Shown one piece after another: positions 41,431-48,734 of a stretch of 48,734 nucleotides of DNA. The notes beneath the pieces are model-generated. The model ran no database searches and was not told the DNA's origin. It was given only the letters and a program-made list of their open reading frames with translations. The DNA is from an uncultured Candidatus Bathyarchaeia archaeon (lineage in GTDB: Archaea > Thermoproteota > Bathyarchaeia > TCS64): the NCBI GenBank assembly GCA_964447425.1, contig CAYUTB010000004.1, positions 1,559 to 50,292 on the forward strand. The letters run 5' to 3'. Made by a program: the position numbers and the translations under genes. Position 1 is the stretch's first letter. Each line of letters begins with the position of its first letter.

Positions 41431-42411
41431 GTGTTCATTGGTTTATGTATGAGATGGAAGGCTCACACCCGGACAGCTGAGAAGGTGCTGGGGGTTTTCA
41501 GTGCCTTGCATTTTGATAAGTATGAGAAGGATCTGGTGAATGGGGTTATCTCGCCGGATAACGAGGATACGCGGTCTCATTATGTGGGACGGGAGCAGAC
41601 CGCGTTGGATTATGTTGGGCGGGCTCGTGAGAGGCGGTTGGCGTATGATACTGCTGGGTGTTTTTTCCAGTTGGGGGTGGCGTTTCATTATATTCAGGAT
41701 ATGTGGACGGGTGTTGGGCCGGACTGTGAGGGGCATGAGGTTTATCTTGATCTGATTAACCGCTGTGAATTATTGGATGTCCATGAGAGCCTTGAACGGT
41801 ATTACCCGGTGGGGCGGAGGAGGGTTCTTGATCAGTTCCGGGGGCTGGAGAAGAGGCTTTCTAAGCCCGTGGAGTCTGAGGCTGAGCTGCGGGAGCTGGT
41901 TTTGATGAGGCGGCCTTTTGAGGGGTCTGCTTTTCTTGACCTGAACCTGAGTTTCAGGGTGTGTTATCGTGTGGCTGAGATGGTGTTGAGGACCATGTTG
42001 AATGTAAGCCTACAGGAGTCGTTGGAGCTGCTGCAGAACGAGTACGTTGAGAAGATACGGGATGCTGAGGCGGCTACGGTGGGGGAGATCGAGGCGGTGG
42101 AGGCTGAAGTGGGGCGTCTCGCATTGGGTGATTCTCAGCTTGGAGGCGTTAAGCAGTGGGGTCTTGAGAGGAAGCTCAGTGGTTTGTGTCGTGATTATGA
42201 GGCTAGGCGTCATTTGAGGCCGGTGGTTGCGGGGTTTGAGAGAAAGGTGGAGGAGCTCTGTAAGCCTCATGTTGGGTGGTATAATATCGATAGGCCGTCT
42301 CTGGATGTGGATAAGATACTGGCTCCATCGAAAGAAGAGGCAATTCAGGCTCAAGATGCTAGTGCTCTTGAGGATGAGCAGGTGCCTGATGCTTTTATTC
42401 TGTTATCATAA
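41431..42411 (+). CDS. hypothetical protein with atypical G/T-rich coding strand; possible zinc-dependent phospholipase C-like N-terminal region
   Basis: 326-aa ORF with a GTG start (alternative ATG at 41449, MRWKAHTRT). W..H near the N-terminus and GVAFHYIQD weakly resemble Zn-PLC/S1-P1-type motifs. The rest is Glu/Arg/Leu-rich and helical. The function is not supported beyond this. Confidence 0.35.
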   Translation: MFIGLCMRWKAHTRTAEKVLGVFSALHFDKYEKDLVNGVISPDNEDTRSHYVGREQTALDYVGRARERRLAYDTAGCFFQLGVAFHYIQDMWTGVGPDCEGHEVYLDLINRCELLDVHESLERYYPVGRRRVLDQFRGLEKRLSKPVESEAELRELVLMRRPFEGSAFLDLNLSFRVCYRVAEMVLRTMLNVSLQESLELLQNEYVEKIRDAEAATVGEIEAVEAEVGRLALGDSQLGGVKQWGLERKLSGLCRDYEARRHLRPVVAGFERKVEELCKPHVGWYNIDRPSLDVDKILAPSKEEAIQAQDASALEDEQVPDAFILLS

Positions 42412-42692: not shown

Positions 42693-42827
42693 ATGATGCC
42701 TGAGATTGAGATCCCGGAGGAACTCTACGAGATATTAATGAGGGAATGCGAGGAACGAGGGGCTTCTATGGATGAGTTGATTTCTGAACTGATAATAAAA
42801 TTTGATAGATGTTTTAAACCCACATGA
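42693..42827 (+). CDS. 44-aa ribbon-helix-helix-like protein (not in the ORF track)
   Basis: It runs from ATG 42693 to TGA 42825-42827 and translates to MMPEIEIPEELYEILMRECEERGASMDELISELIIKFDRCFKPT. The beta-strand (IEIPEEL) followed by two helices matches the pattern of CopG/RHH antitoxins. It ends 23 nt upstream of the HNH gene. Confidence 0.45.
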   Translation: MMPEIEIPEELYEILMRECEERGASMDELISELIIKFDRCFKPT

Positions 42828-42850: not shown

Positions 42851-44002
42851 TTGGCTGATTTTCATATTCGTGATTTGAATCAGATTCTTGAACGTGACGC
42901 GACGGATACCACCTATAAGTTCGCTTTGTTGAGGGCGGTTTCTGATGTTTGTCAGCGGCATGATCCTTTACGAGAAAGTGATGGATGGGTCTGGTTTCCA
43001 ACTGGGTATTTGGTTGAGAGGTGGTTGGAGTATTATTATCCGATAATTGATAGTGCGTTGTTTATCCCCCAGAAAGGGTCTGAGAAGACCCTTGATCAGC
43101 CCGGTTATAAGATTGCGTTCAGGGCTTTATTCAAGAAGATTACGGATTATTATAAGGAATGTGGAGATTTTAGGGAATTTTGGATCGATTATAAGAAAGG
43201 TCAGGTTCCTAGGGAGATTAATGGAGTGTGCCTTGAACTCGCTAAGAGTTTGTGGTATACTATTACTCGGTATCCAATGAAGCATCTCGGTTACTCGGCT
43301 TCTGGTGAACATTATGTATTCTTTAGATATTCGAATAGATCGGTAATTAGTAAGGATACAATTTTTTCGCGGGCTTTATTGTTTGATGAGTTTGGTGAGT
43401 TTTCCGTTAACTCAGGTTTCTATGATACTCTTCGTTTGTTCGGTTCTTATATTTCTGGGGAATATTCAATATTGAATAAATGGGTTGATTTTTCGGTCAA
43501 ATCGGATTCCTCGCGAAAGGTTGATCCTTCTTATGTTTTTTCTGTTTTGAACATGAGACCAGAGTCAGAGAGGGATGTGGGGGATGTGAGGAGTTTTTAC
43601 ATAGATTTGTTTAAGGAGCAGAGATACTTGGAATGTGTTTGGTCGGGTACTCGTATTAATTCTTGGAATAATGTGCATATTGACCATGTTATTCCGTTTT
43701 CTCTCTGGGGTAATAATGATTTATGGAATCTTTTACCTGCGCATCAGCGATATAATTCTCAGAAAAGTGATTTGATTCCTGCTATTTCTTTGCTTGAAAA
43801 TCGGAAAGAGCAAATTATTTCTTATTGGGAGTTATTGGAAAACGGTTTCAATTATAGATATAACAAGGAGATTGAGTATAATCTTCTCGACTCAAAACGT
43901 CTAGACACATCAATGGATACTATTTTTAATAAATTAATTAAAAAATGTGAGTATCTAATTGATGTCAGGGGGTTTTCCGAGTGGAATTTGAAGGTGCGAT
44001 AG
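42851..44002 (+). CDS. His-Me finger (HNH) nuclease-domain protein with an unrecognised ~270-aa N-terminal region
   Basis: 383 aa with a TTG start. The C-terminal motif HIDHVIPFSLWGNNDLWNLLPAHQRYNSQKSD (nt 43676-43771) has the DH...N...N..K layout of cysteine-less HNH domains (Cas9-HNH / GmrSD-DUF1524 style). Confidence 0.75.
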   Translation: MADFHIRDLNQILERDATDTTYKFALLRAVSDVCQRHDPLRESDGWVWFPTGYLVERWLEYYYPIIDSALFIPQKGSEKTLDQPGYKIAFRALFKKITDYYKECGDFREFWIDYKKGQVPREINGVCLELAKSLWYTITRYPMKHLGYSASGEHYVFFRYSNRSVISKDTIFSRALLFDEFGEFSVNSGFYDTLRLFGSYISGEYSILNKWVDFSVKSDSSRKVDPSYVFSVLNMRPESERDVGDVRSFYIDLFKEQRYLECVWSGTRINSWNNVHIDHVIPFSLWGNNDLWNLLPAHQRYNSQKSDLIPAISLLENRKEQIISYWELLENGFNYRYNKEIEYNLLDSKRLDTSMDTIFNKLIKKCEYLIDVRGFSEWNLKVR

Positions 44003-44320
44003 ATGATTAGAGTATATAACAAAGCAATTCGAGACAAAATACCAAAGATCATTGAAGAATCGGGATCAACGCCCAAAGTAAAAAAACTGAATGACAATGA
44101 TTTTTTAAAGGAACTAACAAAAAAAATCGATGAAGAGGTAAATGAATTTAAAGAAAGCAAAAAAGCTGAAGAACTTTGTGATCTTATTGAAATTGCTTAC
44201 AGAATTGCAGAATTATATGGTGTTTCAAATATGGAACTAGATCAAATTCGATCTGAAAAGAATCTGAAACGAGGAAAGTTTGATACGAATTTATTCTTAA
44301 TCCAAGTACAAGATAGCTAA
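44003..44320 (+). CDS. MazG-superfamily all-alpha NTP pyrophosphohydrolase (house-cleaning type)
   Basis: 105 aa. The motifs YNKAIRDKIPKII, EEVNEF, EELCDLIEIAY and KRGKF match the small 'phosphoribosyl-ATP pyrophosphohydrolase-like/MazG-like' family. Its ATG directly abuts the HNH stop. Confidence 0.8.
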   Translation: MIRVYNKAIRDKIPKIIEESGSTPKVKKLNDNDFLKELTKKIDEEVNEFKESKKAEELCDLIEIAYRIAELYGVSNMELDQIRSEKNLKRGKFDTNLFLIQVQDS

Positions 44321-44574
44321 AGTCCAAGCTCCTTGATCATTACTTTCTTTGATAATCGATAACAATTGGTTGATGTTTCTTTATCTGTGACTATGCCTTC
44401 ATGAACGATTATATTTCTAATTTGTCGGAAGTAATTTAATTCCTCATAAAGATCGGTTTCTAGAATATTTGATAGATTTAATGTTTCTAGTACAGGATAT
44501 GTAGTCCAATTGGAGGTATTTTTCCAAAGCCTGTTTTCTTTTTCAAACATAAAAAAAGTATAACACATATTCAT
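44317..44574 (-). CDS. mini-HEPN domain protein (Rx4H motif)
   Basis: 85 aa. The sequence LNYFRQIRNIIVHEG contains R-N-x3-H (nt 44401-44418), the HEPN RNase signature. Its ATG overlaps the PLD gene stop (ATGA at 44571-44574). Confidence 0.55.
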   Translation of the reverse strand: MNMCYTFFMFEKENRLWKNTSNWTTYPVLETLNLSNILETDLYEELNYFRQIRNIIVHEGIVTDKETSTNCYRLSKKVMIKELGL

Positions 44575-45398
44575 TGCTTGATTAAATCGTTGAAGGATTC
44601 CATTGCTCTTTGTATATTTGTGGGTTCAACTGTTACAATTCCAGCTTCCCATAATTTTCCAGCAACGGATTCACTATAGAGATTCATTGAGGAAGCACTC
44701 AGCACTTGGTTGTCGAGAATGAAGATTTTTGCGTGGACTGAGTCATTATAGTGAACCTCAATACTTGAATCATTCAATCTTTTATGATATTTTTCTTTAT
44801 CTCGAATTCTTTTTCCTGACCAATTGCTTTCTGTTTTTTGCGTAACAAGAACAACTTTAACTCCTTTTTCACTGGCTTGAATAAGACTATCACTAAATGC
44901 ACACGGTTCGACGTAAGGATTAACAACCAATATCTCGTTTCTAGTTCTGGGAATTAAATCACGTAAAAGCGAATCAAGCATGTCACCCTTGAGAAATAGA
45001 TGCGTGCTATTTTTCCCCATCGAGATATTCTTGAACTTAATCCATTCAAACATTCGCTCTCTCAAATAATTCTGATCTTTGAGGTTTTGTCTCTGAAGTA
45101 AGAGGCTCTGTAATCGCCCTTCCTCTTTTTTTTCCTCAGCCAATTCCTCAAGTTTTTCCTTTGCCCAATCTTCACCGAAATGTGCTTTGTATTTCAACCA
45201 AAGCTCGTATTCTACTTTGAAACCACCAGGTGCATCCTCTATTATATTTTGTTTTTCAAGTGCCTTGAGGATAGGTTTCAGTTGCTCGTTAGTAAAACCA
45301 AGATAATCTCGAATTTCACCCCATTGACGCAAGTTCTCTACTGAGATAGCTTGAATTATTTTTCCTTCAATGGTTCCAAGGTAGGGTAAGTTACTCAA
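44571..45398 (-). CDS. winged-HTH / coiled-coil / PLD-family (single HKD, Nuc-like) nuclease
   Basis: 275 aa. It has an N-terminal wHTH-like region (IIQAISVENLRQWGEIRDYLGFTNEQLKPILKALEKQNII), a charged linker, and an HxKx4D motif HAKIFILD (nt 44712-44735) followed by SASSMNL. Confidence 0.75.
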   Translation of the reverse strand: MSNLPYLGTIEGKIIQAISVENLRQWGEIRDYLGFTNEQLKPILKALEKQNIIEDAPGGFKVEYELWLKYKAHFGEDWAKEKLEELAEEKKEEGRLQSLLLQRQNLKDQNYLRERMFEWIKFKNISMGKNSTHLFLKGDMLDSLLRDLIPRTRNEILVVNPYVEPCAFSDSLIQASEKGVKVVLVTQKTESNWSGKRIRDKEKYHKRLNDSSIEVHYNDSVHAKIFILDNQVLSASSMNLYSESVAGKLWEAGIVTVEPTNIQRAMESFNDLIKQ

Positions 45399-45445: not shown

Positions 45446-45580
45446 CTAGGTACAAATCTTGTCAATGGCATCATCCAATACCAGCTGAGGCTGCATATAC
45501 TGCCTGATCACATAGGCATCGTATCCTGCTTTCTCATCTCTGCACTGAGCTGCCTCAACGGGACCAAAACCAAACACCAT
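45446..45580 (-). pseudogene. copy A of a repeated gene 3'-end fragment (44-47 codons still open)
   Basis: The minus-strand translation MVFGFGPVEAAQCRDEKAGYDAYVIRQYMQPQLVLDDAIDKICT* parallels the C-terminus of the ORF at 48505..48734. Confidence 0.7.
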
Positions 45581-45607: not shown

Positions 45608-46396
45608 TCATAGTATAAGCTCTAGCTCATTGAGAAATGTAGTAACTCTTACATATACATCATTACGGGTAGCTCCATTCGAGCCTATGAAACGTGCAGC
45701 TGATACACACCCATACCTCGTCGGCGAAGAAAAACCGCCTTTAATATTACGCAGTGCCTGTAGCACCCTTGAATTATCTTTGTCATCGCCAGTCAGATCA
45801 TTAAACAGTTTAGCAGCCTTCTGTGGAGAACCCATACAAAACCCAGAAACACTATAAATATCATAACTATCCTTATCCTTCAACCTACCCAAAGCATTCC
45901 CCTTCGTCGTCAAAACACCAACAATATCAGCTATATCAATCGAAAAAACCGCATCACCACCCAAAGGAAGACCCGCCTCCAAATCGTATTCAAAGAAATG
46001 ATCAAAAACAACAGAAATACCAGGAATCAAACATGCTCTAAGACTCTCCTGAATCTCCACCAGAAACCCTTGCTCTAGTGCAGGCTCAGGCTCTGTGAGT
46101 AAGTCCAAATGCAAAGGAAAAGTCCCGGACTTATCCATTGTATGTATTTTTCTTTCAAACCTAAAAGGGTTCTCCGTGATCTCATATCCAAGACCTTCCA
46201 CTATATCCTTAATATTCTCATACCGGGGAAGAATAGAAGGTCGTAAAACAAGATCAATGTCTATTGAGCCACAGTGATCATAATAGTTTTTAGTAAGAAA
46301 ATAGGGAGCCCATCCACCGACAAGAACAAATTCTCCCCGATAACTATTCAACGCCATACAAAGCTCCAGCAACGCCCCCTTTGACGCCTCAGTCAA
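45608..46396 (-). CDS. AbiEii/DUF1814-like nucleotidyltransferase toxin
   Basis: 262 aa with a minimal NTase motif in VLVGGWAPYF...GSIDIDLVL. It has a TTG start 4 nt after the AbiEi-like gene, the canonical AbiEi-AbiEii order. Confidence 0.65.
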   Translation of the reverse strand: MTEASKGALLELCMALNSYRGEFVLVGGWAPYFLTKNYYDHCGSIDIDLVLRPSILPRYENIKDIVEGLGYEITENPFRFERKIHTMDKSGTFPLHLDLLTEPEPALEQGFLVEIQESLRACLIPGISVVFDHFFEYDLEAGLPLGGDAVFSIDIADIVGVLTTKGNALGRLKDKDSYDIYSVSGFCMGSPQKAAKLFNDLTGDDKDNSRVLQALRNIKGGFSSPTRYGCVSAARFIGSNGATRNDVYVRVTTFLNELELIL

Positions 46397-46400
46397 ATTC

Positions 46401-47081
46401 CTATCGTACAGATTCAGCCACGCCTAAAAGATACTCACTCCACTGCTTCTTAATATCTTCTAGCAGATTCTCGGCAGCCTCAACTCCCCTAGCGGGGTAA
46501 TTTTTTAGATCAACGAATAACTGGACATCTGAAACAATCCTTAACCCATTAACAATCTGAGTCTTATAGAAGACCTCCTCATCATAAGGAAACACAAGCT
46601 TAACGTTTCCATCTTTCTCAACGGGTACTAAGTCCAGATCCACGACTACATTCTTCAAATCATTCTTATTCTTAACATACATCTCAACGGTTCTCGGTCG
46701 AACATTAGGAGAAACCAAAAACGCACCAGCAAGAGTAGTTAAAGCATACTCCACCTTAACGTTCCTAAGCTTGTTCAACACGTTCTCAATATCATTATCA
46801 TACGTGTAATAATCCATGAACTCGTTCGCAAACACATACTGATGATAACTAGCCCACCGCTCCAACAACCCAACAGGATTAACCAGTTCAAGCAACTCAG
46901 TCTCATCTCTAATAACATAACCCAAACTCAACAAAGAAGCAACAACAGCATGCGTATACCCCACACTAACATCAATCTCCTTCGCCAACGCACGGATACT
47001 CCATCCTTTACCCGGATTAGCCAAGAGACCTCTAAGTATCCGTGATGCCTTATGTTCAAAGATGTTGTTTACTTTCCGCAT
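46401..47081 (-). CDS. AbiEi-like wHTH antitoxin/transcriptional regulator
   Basis: It has the wHTH RILRGLLANPGKGWSIRALAKEIDVSVGYTHAVVASLLSLGYVIRDE plus a C-terminal domain. I use ATG 47081 (MRKVNNIF), which lies about 25 nt downstream of a TATATATA box. The ORF-track TTG start at 47138 runs into the operator palindrome. Confidence 0.65.
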   Translation of the reverse strand: MRKVNNIFEHKASRILRGLLANPGKGWSIRALAKEIDVSVGYTHAVVASLLSLGYVIRDETELLELVNPVGLLERWASYHQYVFANEFMDYYTYDNDIENVLNKLRNVKVEYALTTLAGAFLVSPNVRPRTVEMYVKNKNDLKNVVVDLDLVPVEKDGNVKLVFPYDEEVFYKTQIVNGLRIVSDVQLFVDLKNYPARGVEAAENLLEDIKKQWSEYLLGVAESVR

Positions 47082-47104
47082 CAACTGAAAACTGTTCGCT
47101 AAAG

Positions 47105-47157
47105 TATATATATGTTCGCGGTTTGCGAACGTTCGCAATTAGCGAACATATTTAAAC
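47105..47157. promoter_or_regulatory. four GTTCGC/GCGAAC half-sites (nested palindromes) flanked by TATA-like boxes: candidate AbiEi operator / divergent promoter
   Basis: The sequence is tatatatATGTTCGCggtTTGCGAACGTTCGCAAttaGCGAACATatttaaa. The half-sites lie at 47114-19, 47125-30, 47131-36 and 47142-47. The perfect 16-bp palindrome spans 47123-47138 and the outer arms span 47112-19/47142-49. TATATATA is on the left and ATATTTAAA on the right. Confidence 0.6.
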
Positions 47158-47269
47158 CACAGCAAACACACCCAAAAAATATGAATATTCAACTCCACAG
47201 ACTATCCCTAAAAGAGTTCAGGATCGAAACCCCTAAAAACATACACACACATACCCACACAGAGCAAAC

Positions 47270-47509
47270 ATGGGCACTAAAAACATCTCAATCTCAGAGG
47301 AAGCATACCAAAGACTAGCAGCCCTGAAACAACCAAACGAAAGCTTCACACAGGTAATAAACCGCCTCACAAAAAAACGATCAATACTAGAACTCGCAGG
47401 AACCCTCACAAACCAAGAAGCAGCCGAGATACAAGAAAACATCAAAAAACTACGCCAAGAAAGCACCAATAGAATCACAGCCACCATAAACGAAGTAGAA
47501 ACCCCATGA
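47270..47509 (+). CDS. vapB: archaeal VapB-type (DUF217-like) antitoxin
   Basis: 79 aa. The N-terminus MGTKNISISEEAYQRLAALKQPNESFTQVINRL matches the archaeal VapB family pattern. It overlaps vapC by ATGA. Confidence 0.8.
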   Translation: MGTKNISISEEAYQRLAALKQPNESFTQVINRLTKKRSILELAGTLTNQEAAEIQENIKKLRQESTNRITATINEVETP

Positions 47510-47898
47510 TAGCAGACACCACATTCATCATAGACCTAATGCGCAACAACCCCGACGCCATATCCAAGGCACAGGAAATAGAGAAAAACAACATACCACT
47601 CATCATCACAGCACCCACGTTATTCGAACTCAGCGTAGGCATATCTCTCAGCAAAAAATCCCAACAAGAAAAAAAACAGATACACGAAATCCTAGACACC
47701 CTACCCTTTCAACCACTGGACTACAAGTCATCTCAGGAAGCAGGCTACATCTATGGAGACAAACAGAAAAAAGGCAACAAGATTGACCCACAGGACGCAA
47801 TGATCGCCGGGATCGCTAGATCAAGCGGAGAAAAAATCCTGACAAGAAACACCAAACACTTCCAAGACATCGAAGGAGTCACCATAGAAACATACTAA
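47506..47898 (+). CDS. vapC: PIN-domain ribonuclease toxin VapC
   Basis: 130 aa with acidic PIN residues in IADTTFIID, TLFELS and DPQDAMIAGIA. Confidence 0.85.
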   Translation: MIADTTFIIDLMRNNPDAISKAQEIEKNNIPLIITAPTLFELSVGISLSKKSQQEKKQIHEILDTLPFQPLDYKSSQEAGYIYGDKQKKGNKIDPQDAMIAGIARSSGEKILTRNTKHFQDIEGVTIETY

Positions 47899-47949: not shown

Positions 47950-48120
47950 TTAGGGAAAGACCTTGTCAATGGCATCATCCAGTACAAGTTTAGGTTGCAT
48001 ATACTGCCTGATCACATAAGCATCATAGCCAGCCTTCTCGTCCCTGTACTAAGCCGCAATAATGGGTAACCCAAGCACAACAGCTGGGGCACCGCTGTCA
48101 CCAATCAGGGGACCAACATA
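47950..48120 (-). pseudogene. copy B of the repeated gene 3'-end fragment (in-frame stop)
   Basis: The minus-strand translation ...GPLIGDSGAPAVVLGLPIIAA*YRDEKAGYDAYVIRQYMQPKLVLDDAIDKVFP* parallels 48505..48734. It carries a TAG where copy C has Gln and a one-codon deletion. Confidence 0.7.
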
Positions 48121-48230: not shown

Positions 48231-48440
48231 TTGAACACAATAAGCATACGTCTACCCGACAAACTCCTAGAAGAAATAGACAAACTAGTCACAGAAGGCA
48301 CCTACGCAAGCCGAACCGAAGCACTAAGAGACGCAGCGAGACAGATGCTACGAGCACAAAAAGGCATGCTACAGGGAAAACCCCCCCAGATACCCAAAGA
48401 CGAGATACTAAAAGAAACCCTCAAAGACCTAGATCCCTAG
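48231..48440 (+). CDS. CopG/RHH-family DNA-binding protein (orphan antitoxin-like)
   Basis: 69 aa with a TTG start. The sequence MNTISIRLPDKLLEEIDKLVTEGTYASRTEALRDAARQML is a canonical ribbon-helix-helix N-terminus. No partner toxin ORF is adjacent. Confidence 0.7.
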   Translation: MNTISIRLPDKLLEEIDKLVTEGTYASRTEALRDAARQMLRAQKGMLQGKPPQIPKDEILKETLKDLDP

Positions 48441-48504: not shown

Positions 48505-48734
48505 CTAAGTACAGATCTTATCAATGGCGTCATCCAGCACAAGCTGAGGCTGCATATACTGCCTGATCACATATGCATCATAGCCTGCTTTCTCATCCCT
48601 GTACTGAGCAGCCTCAATTGGGCCTAATCCAAGAACAACTGCCGGGGCGTTGCTGTCACCGATCAAGGGACCCAGAGACCCAGTAGGAGTAGCAGTCAGT
48701 CCGTAATCTGTGATCACCTTGATACTGGGATACC
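48505..48734 (-). CDS. 3' end of an unidentified conserved gene running off the window (copy C, presumably the intact gene)
   Basis: The frame is open from the window edge to TAG (48505-48507). It translates to ...VITDYGLTATPTGSLGPLIGDSNAPAVVLGLGPIEAAQYRDEKAGYDAYVIRQYMQPQLVLDDAIDKICT. I cannot assign a family. Confidence 0.5.
   Translation of the reverse strand, partial: YPSIKVITDYGLTATPTGSLGPLIGDSNAPAVVLGLGPIEAAQYRDEKAGYDAYVIRQYMQPQLVLDDAIDKICT

Follow-up and report, generated by a model that had tools for sequence, protein, structure and literature searches.

The locus considered here raises the question of whether two overlapping genes form a new pair of effectors. They lie on the minus strand of the window, a 48,734-nucleotide stretch of DNA from an uncultured Candidatus Bathyarchaeia archaeon. 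The upstream gene (44571..45398) encodes a 275-aa protein that combines a winged helix-turn-helix domain (wHTH), a long helix and a single HKD motif of the PLD superfamily. The downstream gene (44317..44574) encodes an 85-aa protein with an Rx4H string of the HEPN type, and the TGA of the PLD gene overlaps its ATG as ATGA. Both open reading frames (ORFs), the shared strand and the overlap are real, as given in a preliminary description of the locus, which proposed a DNA- plus RNA-targeting two-gene module or a PLD nuclease with a HEPN regulator or toxin. The result is mainly a correction: the ATGA overlap and two motifs of the conflict type looked like a new effector pair, and comparison leaves one gene and one gene fragment. 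The reading favoured here, to which a probability of about 65% is given, is that a stand-alone wHTH-PLD nuclease of an uncharacterized archaeal family and an unrelated, probably inactive remnant of a HEPN gene lie side by side.

The evidence supports placing the 275-aa protein among PLD proteins of the Nuc type, with a single HKD motif, a winged helix at the N-terminus and a long helix after it. Pfam PLDc_2 matches aa 145–272 (E = 5e-16, 59.1 bits against a gathering cut-off of 27), and it also matches all 45 family members checked. In the AlphaFold2 (AF2) model, which has a pLDDT of 89, three helices (aa 10–19, 26–33 and 37–49) and a beta hairpin (strands 53–56 and 59–62) form the wHTH at aa 10–62 (45213..45371, minus strand), a region that also aligns with TrmBL2 in Foldseek and has weak matches to a Csa3 model, TFIIE_alpha and HTH_24. 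A single charged helix of 46 residues follows (aa 77–122; 45033..45170, minus strand) and is presumed to be a coiled-coil dimerization helix. The PLD-fold catalytic domain, placed by PLDc_2 and Foldseek, occupies aa 133–274 (44577..45002, minus strand). Thus, the winged helix, the charged helical linker and the one HxKx4D motif of the preliminary description are borne out by the PLDc_2 match and the AF2 model. The string HAKIFILD (aa 222–229) extends into a complete HxKx4Dx6(S)SxN motif, H222-A-K224-IFIL-D229-NQVLSA-S-S-M-N239 (44682..44735, minus strand), in which the superfamily pattern HxKx4Dx6G(S/T)xN takes the form H222-x-K224-x4-D229-x6-S-S-M-N239. Residues H222, A223, K224, D229, S237, M238, N239 and L240 are invariant in an alignment of 45 family members with 28–94% identity. 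The dN/dS of the gene is 0.21 against a 94%-identical relative (L005). Its start codon is TTG in the window and ATG at the equivalent position in a 73%-identical relative (L006).

With one HKD motif per chain, the 275-aa protein would have to pair to form an active site. One HKD per chain, in the full form HxKx4Dx6(G/S)SxN, is also found in Nuc (Salmonella pKM101), NucT (Helicobacter pylori) and Zucchini/MitoPLD, and these enzymes build their active site from two chains. Foldseek matches the PLD domain to Nuc (1byr), NucT (6ehi) and Zucchini (4ggk) at E-values of 1e-7 to 7e-9, with target-normalized TM-scores of 0.64–0.74, an rmsd of 3.4–4.3 and 16–20% identity, and the NCBIfam NucT model matches the protein at E = 4e-4. 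Nuc, NucT and Zucchini are bare catalytic domains (Nuc and NucT secreted or periplasmic), whereas the archaeal 275-aa protein adds a cytoplasmic wHTH and the 46-residue helix. In BfiI and NgoAVII-type restriction enzymes, a single-HKD nuclease domain is tethered to a DNA-recognition domain and the dimer has one active site. The concept is the same, but there the domain order is opposite and the DNA-binding fold is B3-like and C-terminal, and here no methyltransferase adjoins the PLD gene. The protein matches no characterized restriction enzyme: searching PDB sequences with the profile of the PLD protein gave nothing below E = 0.01, and BfiI is absent among the 50 Foldseek matches listed. Of the Nuc/BfiI type named in the preliminary description, the Nuc part holds by motif and fold. 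The best PADLOC and NCBIfam matches are MkoC of Mokosh (4.6e-12), DrmC of DISARM (6.8e-9) and DpdK of Dpd (4.6e-7), and the HMM matches of the protein to defence-system PLD nucleases (MkoC, DrmC, DpdK, NucT) are all sub-threshold. However, it misses the equivalog level of DISARM, Dpd and Mokosh proteins (28 against 100 and 26 against 133 bits, NCBIfam), and PADLOC finds no other genes of these systems in the PLD neighbourhood.

TrmBL2 is a chromatin protein that binds DNA non-specifically and is not known to be a nuclease. It is the best whole-length fold match of the PLD protein (5bpd, 5bqt, 5bpi and 5box; E = 5e-11, probability 1.0; Foldseek). The two proteins share their domain order and are of 260 and 275 aa, and the AF2 model has the TrmB/TrmBL2 topology of a wHTH, then a dimerization helix, then an alpha/beta C-terminal domain. 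The helix of TrmBL2 forms an antiparallel coiled-coil dimer and its C-terminal domain makes a tetramer (PMC9025068); the helix at aa 77–122 corresponds by position to this dimerization helix (Foldseek; PMC9025068). Such an architecture could alternatively point to a role in regulation or chromatin: the 275-aa protein would then be no nuclease and would act, like TrmB or TrmBL2, as a transcription factor or as a component of chromatin, its PLD-fold domain binding a phosphate-containing ligand or serving to oligomerize. Weak matches to Regulator_TrmB (E < 0.01) in 6 of the 45 family members point the same way as the fold, as does the annotation of some PLD relatives as transcriptional regulators. 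Yet this reading is unlikely, given that the full catalytic HKD motif, including the Asn, stays invariant across the whole identity range of the family, unlike in TrmB and TrmBL2, and that the PLD domain is nearest to true nucleases. Membership in TrmB by sequence also fails, with the Pfam TrmB HTH domain (PF01978) unmatched, Regulator_TrmB (PF11495) at 16.3 against 22.2 bits and no TrmB chain matched in a PDB sequence search at E ≤ 10. Moreover, the gene lies in patchy, mobile, low-GC contexts instead of a conserved regulon. A literature search on a link between TrmB and PLD returned nothing relevant.

The nuclease reading is thus preferred for a family of about 75 archaeal homologues (widespread in Bathyarchaeia, Asgard and Methanomassiliicoccales), uncharacterized so far, in which a winged helix and a presumed dimerization helix are joined to an intact single-HKD domain. 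No relatives were found in IMG/VR or among GenBank phages. A Pfam census of 150 flanking proteins reveals no recurrent neighbour, the commonest being UvrD helicase (4) and integrase (4). In the mechanism proposed here, the N-terminal winged helix would bind DNA, the long helix would pair two chains, and the two single-HKD domains would meet as in Nuc to make one phosphodiesterase site that cuts DNA. The gene would be self-sufficient, with no fixed partner, and would move among variable, mobile-element and defence-flavoured neighbourhoods, where a role in conflict or defence is plausible.

The second gene owes its HEPN label to R53-N-I-I-V-H58 (44401..44418, minus strand), an Rx4H motif read from the sequence in which a polar residue follows R. 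By the published definition, a HEPN motif is an Rx4-6H string in which a polar residue follows R and which lies where helix 3 ends (PMC3710099), and in the 85-aa ORF the residues R53, N54 and H58 end a helix predicted by AF2 at aa 40–59. By itself, such a string is trivial as HEPN evidence. The relationship comes from a phmmer search of 1.84 billion representative proteins, in which the 85-aa ORF matches a 169-aa HEPN protein (P0078) at E = 1.8e-14 and its relatives include members above the Pfam DUF4145 threshold. By BLASTP, aa 18–83 correspond to residues 103–168 of P0078 with 48% identity. This homology is transitive only, through P0078 and a second protein (P0081); the ORF itself is under all Pfam and NCBIfam HEPN thresholds (HEPN_RiboL-PSP 15.2 against 28.4 bits, HepT-like 14.4 against 23.5, NCBIfam HepT 15 against 60). 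With DUF4145, RiboL-PSP and Swt1-like HEPN proteins it shares R-N-x3-H at the end of a long helix. HEPN domains of the DUF4145 family are as a rule fused to restriction-type nucleases or encoded beside them, and fusions of HKD with HEPN exist (PMC3710099). The HepT-like matches, weak and over the Rx4H helix (E = 0.02–0.03), recall the HepT-MntA (HEPN-MNT) type VII TA pairs, but no nucleotidyltransferase partner adjoins the 85-aa ORF. In the HEPN family alignments R53, N54 and H58 are invariant, and the ORF retains every invariant residue of the family's C-terminal two thirds (W23, E30, Y43, R53, N54, H58 and C71).

The 85-aa ORF is thus HEPN-derived, and it amounts to about half a domain whose N-terminal half is gone, a 5'-truncated fragment of the DUF4145/RiboL-PSP-like kind by phmmer, BLASTP and sub-threshold Pfam matches. 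Members of the family are 139–283 aa long or carry the domain as the C-terminus of proteins of ~490 aa. Full-length relatives have a conserved upstream SFxxSWxIxE helix and another helix, which are absent or degenerate in the ORF; of helix 2, the Ex3R part may survive in the string FEKENRLW. Compared with DUF4145, RiboL-PSP and Swt1-like HEPN proteins, the ORF is without helix 1 and part of helix 2, and so without the complete four-helix core (helices 1–4). AF2 predicts four helices at a pLDDT of 62, a low value that is weak evidence, coming from an 11-sequence alignment; Foldseek with this model finds no fold match, HEPN included. The HEPN signature claimed in the preliminary description therefore stands as a relationship and falls short of both the family thresholds and the full four-helix core. 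With helix 1 and part of helix 2 lost, the fragment most likely has no activity and does not work together with the PLD protein. That it could be a remnant had been raised in the same description, and truncation and absence in relatives now favour this. The ORF has no internal stop codons, and its ends coincide with those of the spacer, the PLD stop on one side and the stop of the 105-aa gene on the other, which is tidy for junk. It is known only in near-identical copies of the window's locus from one strain cluster; these are 99.6–100% identical, and the copies compared for selection do not differ within the ORF, so that no estimate could be made. In a variant of the ORF, the only substitutions, N2I and F8S, are both within the first 8 residues.

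Comparison with relatives bears on the junction itself. The 3' flank of the PLD gene (ATGAATATGTGTTAT...; 44555..44574, minus strand) supplies the ATG and the first ~5 codons (MNMCY) of the 85-aa ORF. In the 94% relative, L005, similarity to the window ends 16 nt beyond the PLD stop; the same ATG opens an ORF of about 10 codons, MNMCYALWIII and a stop, and the HEPN ORF is absent. A 77% relative (L032) has an 18-nt spacer after PLD and no HEPN ORF; in the 73% relative, its place is taken by an ORF of 68 aa that is unrelated. The overlap noted in the preliminary description is thus correct, and the translational coupling read from it is inferred rather than observed, the same ATGAATATGTGTTAT following the PLD stop in a relative that lacks the HEPN ORF. 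A six-frame HMM and tblastn search, covering at least 300 nt downstream of each gene, found HEPN-like sequence at none of 67 non-redundant PLD loci, among them relatives at 94%, 77%, 73%, 60% and 56% identity. When the HEPN-family HMM was run over 95 PLD loci, only the window's own copies matched. Conversely, none of four loci of HEPN relatives has a PLD gene beside it, and those HEPN genes have other contexts. The pairing of PLD with the 85-aa HEPN ORF is not conserved, and there is no two-gene DNA-plus-RNA system; the proposed module does not survive the 0/67 count and the want of a confident HEPN fold. A PLD-HEPN fusion by -1 frameshifting was rejected, since no slippery site was seen on reading the sequence and the ORF is missing in relatives.

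What could still be argued is that the module is recent and lineage-specific, the PLD nuclease and its neighbour (a HEPN RNase of minimal size, or a regulator resembling HEPN proteins) being co-transcribed, translationally coupled through ATGA and acting together. The genes overlap on the same strand within one low-GC block (GC 0.37 for PLD, 0.30 for the HEPN ORF), neither the catalytic motif of HEPN nor any invariant residue of the C-terminal part has been lost, and HKD-HEPN fusions occur elsewhere (PMC3710099). Such a module is nonetheless quite improbable, as a relative that lacks the HEPN ORF already has the ATGA, and the ORF is missing from all other PLD loci, including those of the 94%, 77% and 73% relatives. 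The loss of the N-terminal half of the domain and the lack of a confident fold weigh against it too, as does one gene caller's choice of M9 as the start, 24 nt past the PLD stop. Alternatively, the 85-aa ORF may encode a small protein that functions by itself and has nothing to do with PLD, for instance a HEPN half-domain whose dimer is an active RNase toxin, or a decoy or inhibitor of full-length HEPN proteins. Its intact frame, its conserved R-N-x3-H and C71 and the four helices still given by AF2 are consistent with this, and there are relatives of 104–107 aa that start at the same helix. However, these relatives are on short contigs and 139-aa versions of the same sequence exist, so they look like incomplete calls; a four-helix bundle without helix 1 should expose its core (PMC3710099). 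With no antitoxin-like neighbour and a distribution confined to one strain cluster, a functional mini-protein is very unlikely.

A 105-aa gene (44003..44320, plus strand) is convergent to PLD, its stop overlapping that of the 85-aa ORF by 4 nt, and directly upstream of it lies the gene of a 383-aa protein that carries an HNH_4 nuclease domain at its C-terminus (42851..44002, plus strand; Pfam HNH_4, E = 8e-8). This 105-aa/HNH pair also adjoins PLD in L032 and L006, making three lineages in all, and HNH protein divergence follows the same order as PLD divergence; for the window's clade, it is therefore not proven that PLD needs no partner. The 105-aa protein has no robust family match. Its assignment as a MazG/PRA-PH-like pyrophosphohydrolase was dropped, the PRA-PH match (E = 0.012) not being reproduced in two orthologues or in the PDB. 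The 85-aa fragment fills the variable spacer between PLD and the pair.

Directly upstream of PLD lies a partial copy of the 3'-terminal part of a gene for an HK97-like major capsid protein (45446..45573, minus strand; repeat family D1), as seen in the alignment with L032 and L005, and further copies occur at 47950–48077 and 48505–48632. The repeat is the C-terminus of a neighbouring 313-aa protein (L001:725-1666) that matches the PHROG "major head protein" (E = 7e-6) and Pfam Phage_capsid (E = 3e-4). Two other identities for it were discarded. A derivation from the 3' part of a gene for a PIN toxin fell because BLASTP gave no similarity to the PIN protein, the match being to the capsid-like protein instead; integron attC-like sites were dropped because the three repeats of ~130–200 nt are coding sequence with third-position variation. 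Rfam has no match in the whole window. The PLD gene is here part of the low-GC block directly downstream of this capsid-gene sequence, and a 5'-truncated DUF4145/RiboL-PSP-type HEPN piece may have landed, or been cut down, in the spacer before the 105-aa/HNH pair. The piece would borrow the ATG already existing in the PLD 3' flank; it retains helix 3, which bears Rx4H, as well as helix 4 and the insert between helices 2 and 3, helix 1 and part of helix 2 having been lost.

Beyond the correction, the PLD family may provide archaea with a new nuclease that acts alone in defence or exclusion, and a TrmBL2-like architecture with an intact HKD could bear on the origin of TrmB-type regulators. Repeated capsid 3' ends bound a cassette region that is hypervariable and may record cargo swapping in archaeal proviruses. 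As a tentative conjecture, the wHTH–coiled-coil–HKD family would be a catalytically live relative of TrmB/TrmBL2, a DNA-binding nuclease that either gave rise to the TrmB effector domain, which is non-catalytic, or arose side by side with it. Bathyarchaeia might carry the gene as cargo in a hot spot for cassettes, directly downstream of a capsid gene and marked by the repeated capsid 3' ends; the nuclease, borne there by a virus or provirus, might serve in exclusion or defence.

In L005, a canonical MNT and HEPN pair lies upstream of PLD on the other strand, its HEPN belonging to a different family (PF05168). In another contig (L004) the PLD gene is interrupted at a breakpoint corresponding to window position 44789. 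An IS element was considered there and rejected, the 57-aa product having no Pfam transposase match; the breakpoint may reflect a rearrangement or a chimeric assembly.

The 275-aa PLD protein is encoded on the minus strand (44571..45398) from a TTG start, at the position of which the 73% identical relative at locus L006 has an ATG. PLDc_2 (Pfam) covers aa 145-272 (E=5e-16, 59 bits vs. a cut-off of 27). The AlphaFold2 model built with a 45-member alignment (pLDDT 89) begins with a winged helix (helices 10-19, 26-33, and 37-49, hairpin 53-62), followed by a short helix, a single 46-residue helix (77-122), and an alpha/beta PLD domain (133-274). Pfam, the alignment, the predicted structure, and Foldseek bear out the anatomy given in the preliminary description: a helix-turn-helix of the winged type (wHTH), a coiled-coil-like linker, and one HKD motif in a protein that would need to dimerise. 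Across the 45 aligned members (28-94% identity), H222, A223, K224, D229, S237, M238, N239, and L240 are invariant and make up the complete HxKx4Dx6(S)SxN signature. Comparison with the 94% identical relative gives a dN/dS of 0.21; more distant pairs have pN of 0.11-0.23 with synonymous sites saturated. A word-index search returned 75 homologues, nearly all unnamed metagenomic proteins. Genome and metagenome scans place relatives in Bathyarchaeia, Thor-, Heimdall-, and Promethearchaeota, and Methanomassiliicoccales, and none was found in IMG/VR or GenBank phages. HMM matches to NucT and to the defence components MkoC, DrmC, and DpdK all lie far under curated cut-offs, and no companion genes of the MkoC, DrmC, or DpdK systems were found around PLD.

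The eight top Foldseek matches of the model in the PDB are all TrmBL2 chains, matched over the whole length (E=5e-11 to 9e-10), and the next matches, to the PLD domain, are Zucchini, NucT, and Nuc (target-normalised TM-score 0.64-0.74). TrmBL2 consists of a wHTH, an antiparallel coiled-coil dimerisation helix, and a C-terminal domain that makes the tetramer (PMC9025068). The 275-aa protein has an equal architecture but adds a live catalytic motif. With TrmB it shares no sequence-level link: a PDB search with its profile reached no TrmB chain (E<=10), the Pfam TrmB HTH model had no match in it, and its Regulator_TrmB match was sub-threshold. Regulator_TrmB is a member of the PLD clan in Pfam; if this placement holds, a fold relationship between TrmB and PLD would already be known in outline. 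No paper linking TrmBL2 to PLD nucleases was found in the literature searched, and the TrmBL2 resemblance is the one point that a specialist might think worth following.

In the proposed mechanism, the winged helix would bind DNA, the 46-residue helix would join two chains as in TrmBL2, and the two PLD domains would build one Nuc-like active site, cleaving DNA via a phospho-histidine intermediate. The probability of this reading as a whole is about 0.55-0.6; from the observed domain anatomy and conservation we infer activity, substrate, oligomeric state, and biological role. Single-HKD nucleases joined to a DNA-binding domain are a known kind, and the PLD protein is a new and so far uncharacterised member of it.

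The 85-aa ORF that follows PLD (44317..44574, minus strand) very probably originated in a HEPN gene, because it has homologues and keeps the family-invariant residues W23, E30, Y43, R53, N54, H58, and C71. A word-index search returned only the ORF itself, and exhaustive phmmer over 1.84 billion representative proteins returned 11 proteins. The best informative match is P0078, a 169-aa DUF4145-like HEPN protein (E=1.8e-14), residues 103-168 of which align by BLASTP with residues 18-83 of the ORF at 48% identity; the homology to HEPN proteins is real. Other relatives are 139-283 aa long or are ~490-aa proteins with the domain as their C-terminus, and several pass the Pfam DUF4145 threshold or come near HEPN_RiboL-PSP or HEPN_Swt1. 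The ORF itself does not pass any curated HEPN threshold. N-terminal to the aligned part, every full-length relative has a conserved helix (SFxxSWxIxE...LW) and one further helix; the window ORF either lacks these or keeps no more of them than FEKENRLW, with 17-19 residues deleted. The ORF retains the helix-2/3 insert, helix 3, and helix 4, and lacks helix 1. Structure prediction did not recover the HEPN fold expected of it (AlphaFold2 pLDDT only 62, no Foldseek match to the model). On balance, the ORF is probably a non-functional remnant. At another locus (L097:1569-2400), a 108-aa gene that matches no family comes before a full-length HEPN relative (171 aa) and overlaps it, and this pair may be the native two-gene context of the HEPN family.

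A two-gene system joining DNA targeting by PLD to RNA targeting by HEPN, as had been proposed, is not real, and the 85-aa ORF is almost certainly not a conserved PLD partner. The 85-aa protein recurs in identical form on four contigs only, each of which matches the window at 99.6-100% identity. The expected PLD and mini-HEPN neighbours did not recur: a HEPN-family HMM that scanned every ORF of ≥30 aa at 95 loci matched only the window's own copies, and six-frame HMM and tblastn searches of the 900 nt 3' of PLD found no HEPN in 78 non-redundant loci (67 with at least 300 nt of downstream sequence). None of four HEPN-relative loci contains a PLD gene; their neighbours are a BilD/ThiF gene, a TIR gene, an overlapping 108-aa gene, and a tRNA-like sequence. 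At L005 (PLD 94% identical), similarity to the window spans 45550 to 44555 only, ending 16 nt past the PLD stop. At L032 (77%), an empty gap of 18 nt separates the PLD stop from the stop of a convergent 105-aa gene, and L006 has a 382-nt spacer with an unrelated 68-aa ORF. Neither a small ORF nor an HNH gene is present at L010 (60%) or L033 (56%). The L006 ORF (1328-1534, plus strand; ITREHILSAI...YPPKYVIS), which lies between PLD and the 105-aa gene, has no Pfam match and may be another gene fragment; the PLD/105-aa spacer seems to gather gene pieces.

The claim of translational coupling relied on the ATGA shared by the PLD stop (TGA) and the start (ATG) of the 85-aa ORF. At the end of PLD in L005, the same ATGAATATGTGTTAT starts a 10-codon ORF (MNMCYALWIII-stop). 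A variant of the 85-aa ORF has changes at residues 2 and 8 only, and another gene call starts at M9. Together with the L005 breakpoint, these place the first five codons in the PLD flank, with the HEPN-derived part starting around residue 10. The overlap is older than the HEPN fragment and is no evidence of coupling. One 765-nt contig, L004, bears the 3' quarter of PLD and an intact 85-aa ORF; its positions 1-242, which meet window position 44789 within PLD (aa ~204), are unrelated sequence whose other strand encodes a 57-aa fragment. No transposase signature was found in it, and the contig represents either an assembly chimera or a PLD allele that has been rearranged or disrupted.

The convergent 105-aa gene (44003..44320, plus strand), whose stop overlaps that of the 85-aa ORF by 4 nt, is preceded by a gene for a 383-aa HNH_4 protein (42851..44002, plus strand). 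GC content is 0.38 in HNH, 0.30 in the 105-aa gene, 0.30 in the 85-aa ORF, and 0.37 in PLD, forming a low-GC block flanked by genes of 0.42-0.52; window core genes cluster at ≥90% identity with Candidatus Bathyarchaeota MAG proteins. In the closest clade (window, L032, and L006), the 105-aa and HNH genes are convergent to PLD in every case and diverge in the same order as PLD, which fits inheritance as a block and is no proof of a functional link. A Pfam census of 150 flanking proteins from 63 PLD loci found no recurrent PLD partner; the commonest families were UvrD helicase (4), phage integrase (4), OLD-type ATPase (2), and BrxL (1), giving the surroundings a mobile or defence flavour with nothing fixed. 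Just 5' of the HNH gene, a 44-aa ORF (42693-42827, plus strand) with sub-threshold ribbon-helix-helix (RHH) matches (RHH_1 E=1.3e-3; DUF7557 E=9.5e-4) may encode a small regulator for the HNH and 105-aa genes. A 326-aa protein (41431-42411, plus strand; GC 0.52 vs. 0.37 for PLD), 2.1 kb from PLD, has a weak Zn_dep_PLPC match and 25-27% identical homologues of 378 aa (Zn_dep_PLPC E=1e-9) at L015:4630-5766, L016:6788-7924, and L020:4299-5411. In Methanomassiliicoccales, the 378-aa homologues lie convergent to PLD relatives, 8-9 nt after them. This could be an older pairing of PLD with a phospholipase-C/P1-nuclease-like protein, split in the window by insertion of the HNH and 105-aa genes.

Directly 5' of PLD in the window, L032 (4-255), and L005 (~880-1170), the sequence is the same in kind as the 3' end of a 313-aa gene just past the window end (L001:725-1666), which matches PHROG 'major head protein' (E=7e-6) and, sub-threshold, Pfam Phage_capsid (E=3e-4). 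Three copies of this HK97-like major capsid gene 3' end, 74-86% identical (45446-45573, 47950-48077, and 48505-48632, the third reaching the window end), set apart the cassettes in the window, in the order capsid gene, RHH, copy, VapBC with an AbiE-like pair, partial copy, PLD block. Repeated recombination at the capsid 3' end seems to have made this region a cargo hot spot, in a provirus or in what remains of one. At 45608-47138 (minus strand), an AbiEi_2-type antitoxin/regulator (245 aa, E=3e-8) and a 262-aa protein whose AbiEii nucleotidyltransferase match is no more than faint (E=0.11) are probably a divergent AbiE-like pair; a 41-nt palindrome (47093-47168) overlapping the start of this pair and its upstream region could be an operator. 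A VapB-like (79 aa) and VapC PIN (130 aa, E=2.5e-19) pair lies at 47270-47898 (plus strand) and a 69-aa RHH gene at 48231-48440 (plus strand). The convergent 148-aa PIN neighbour of the RHH gene is present in the near-identical L001 (1708-2154) and deleted in the window, a strain-level gain and loss of a toxin gene. On L005, upstream of PLD and of the capsid fragment, the opposite strand (3-841, minus) carries a canonical toxin-antitoxin pair of MNT (NTP_transf_2/Polbeta) and HEPN (PF05168, E=1e-10); its HEPN belongs to a different family from the 85-aa ORF.
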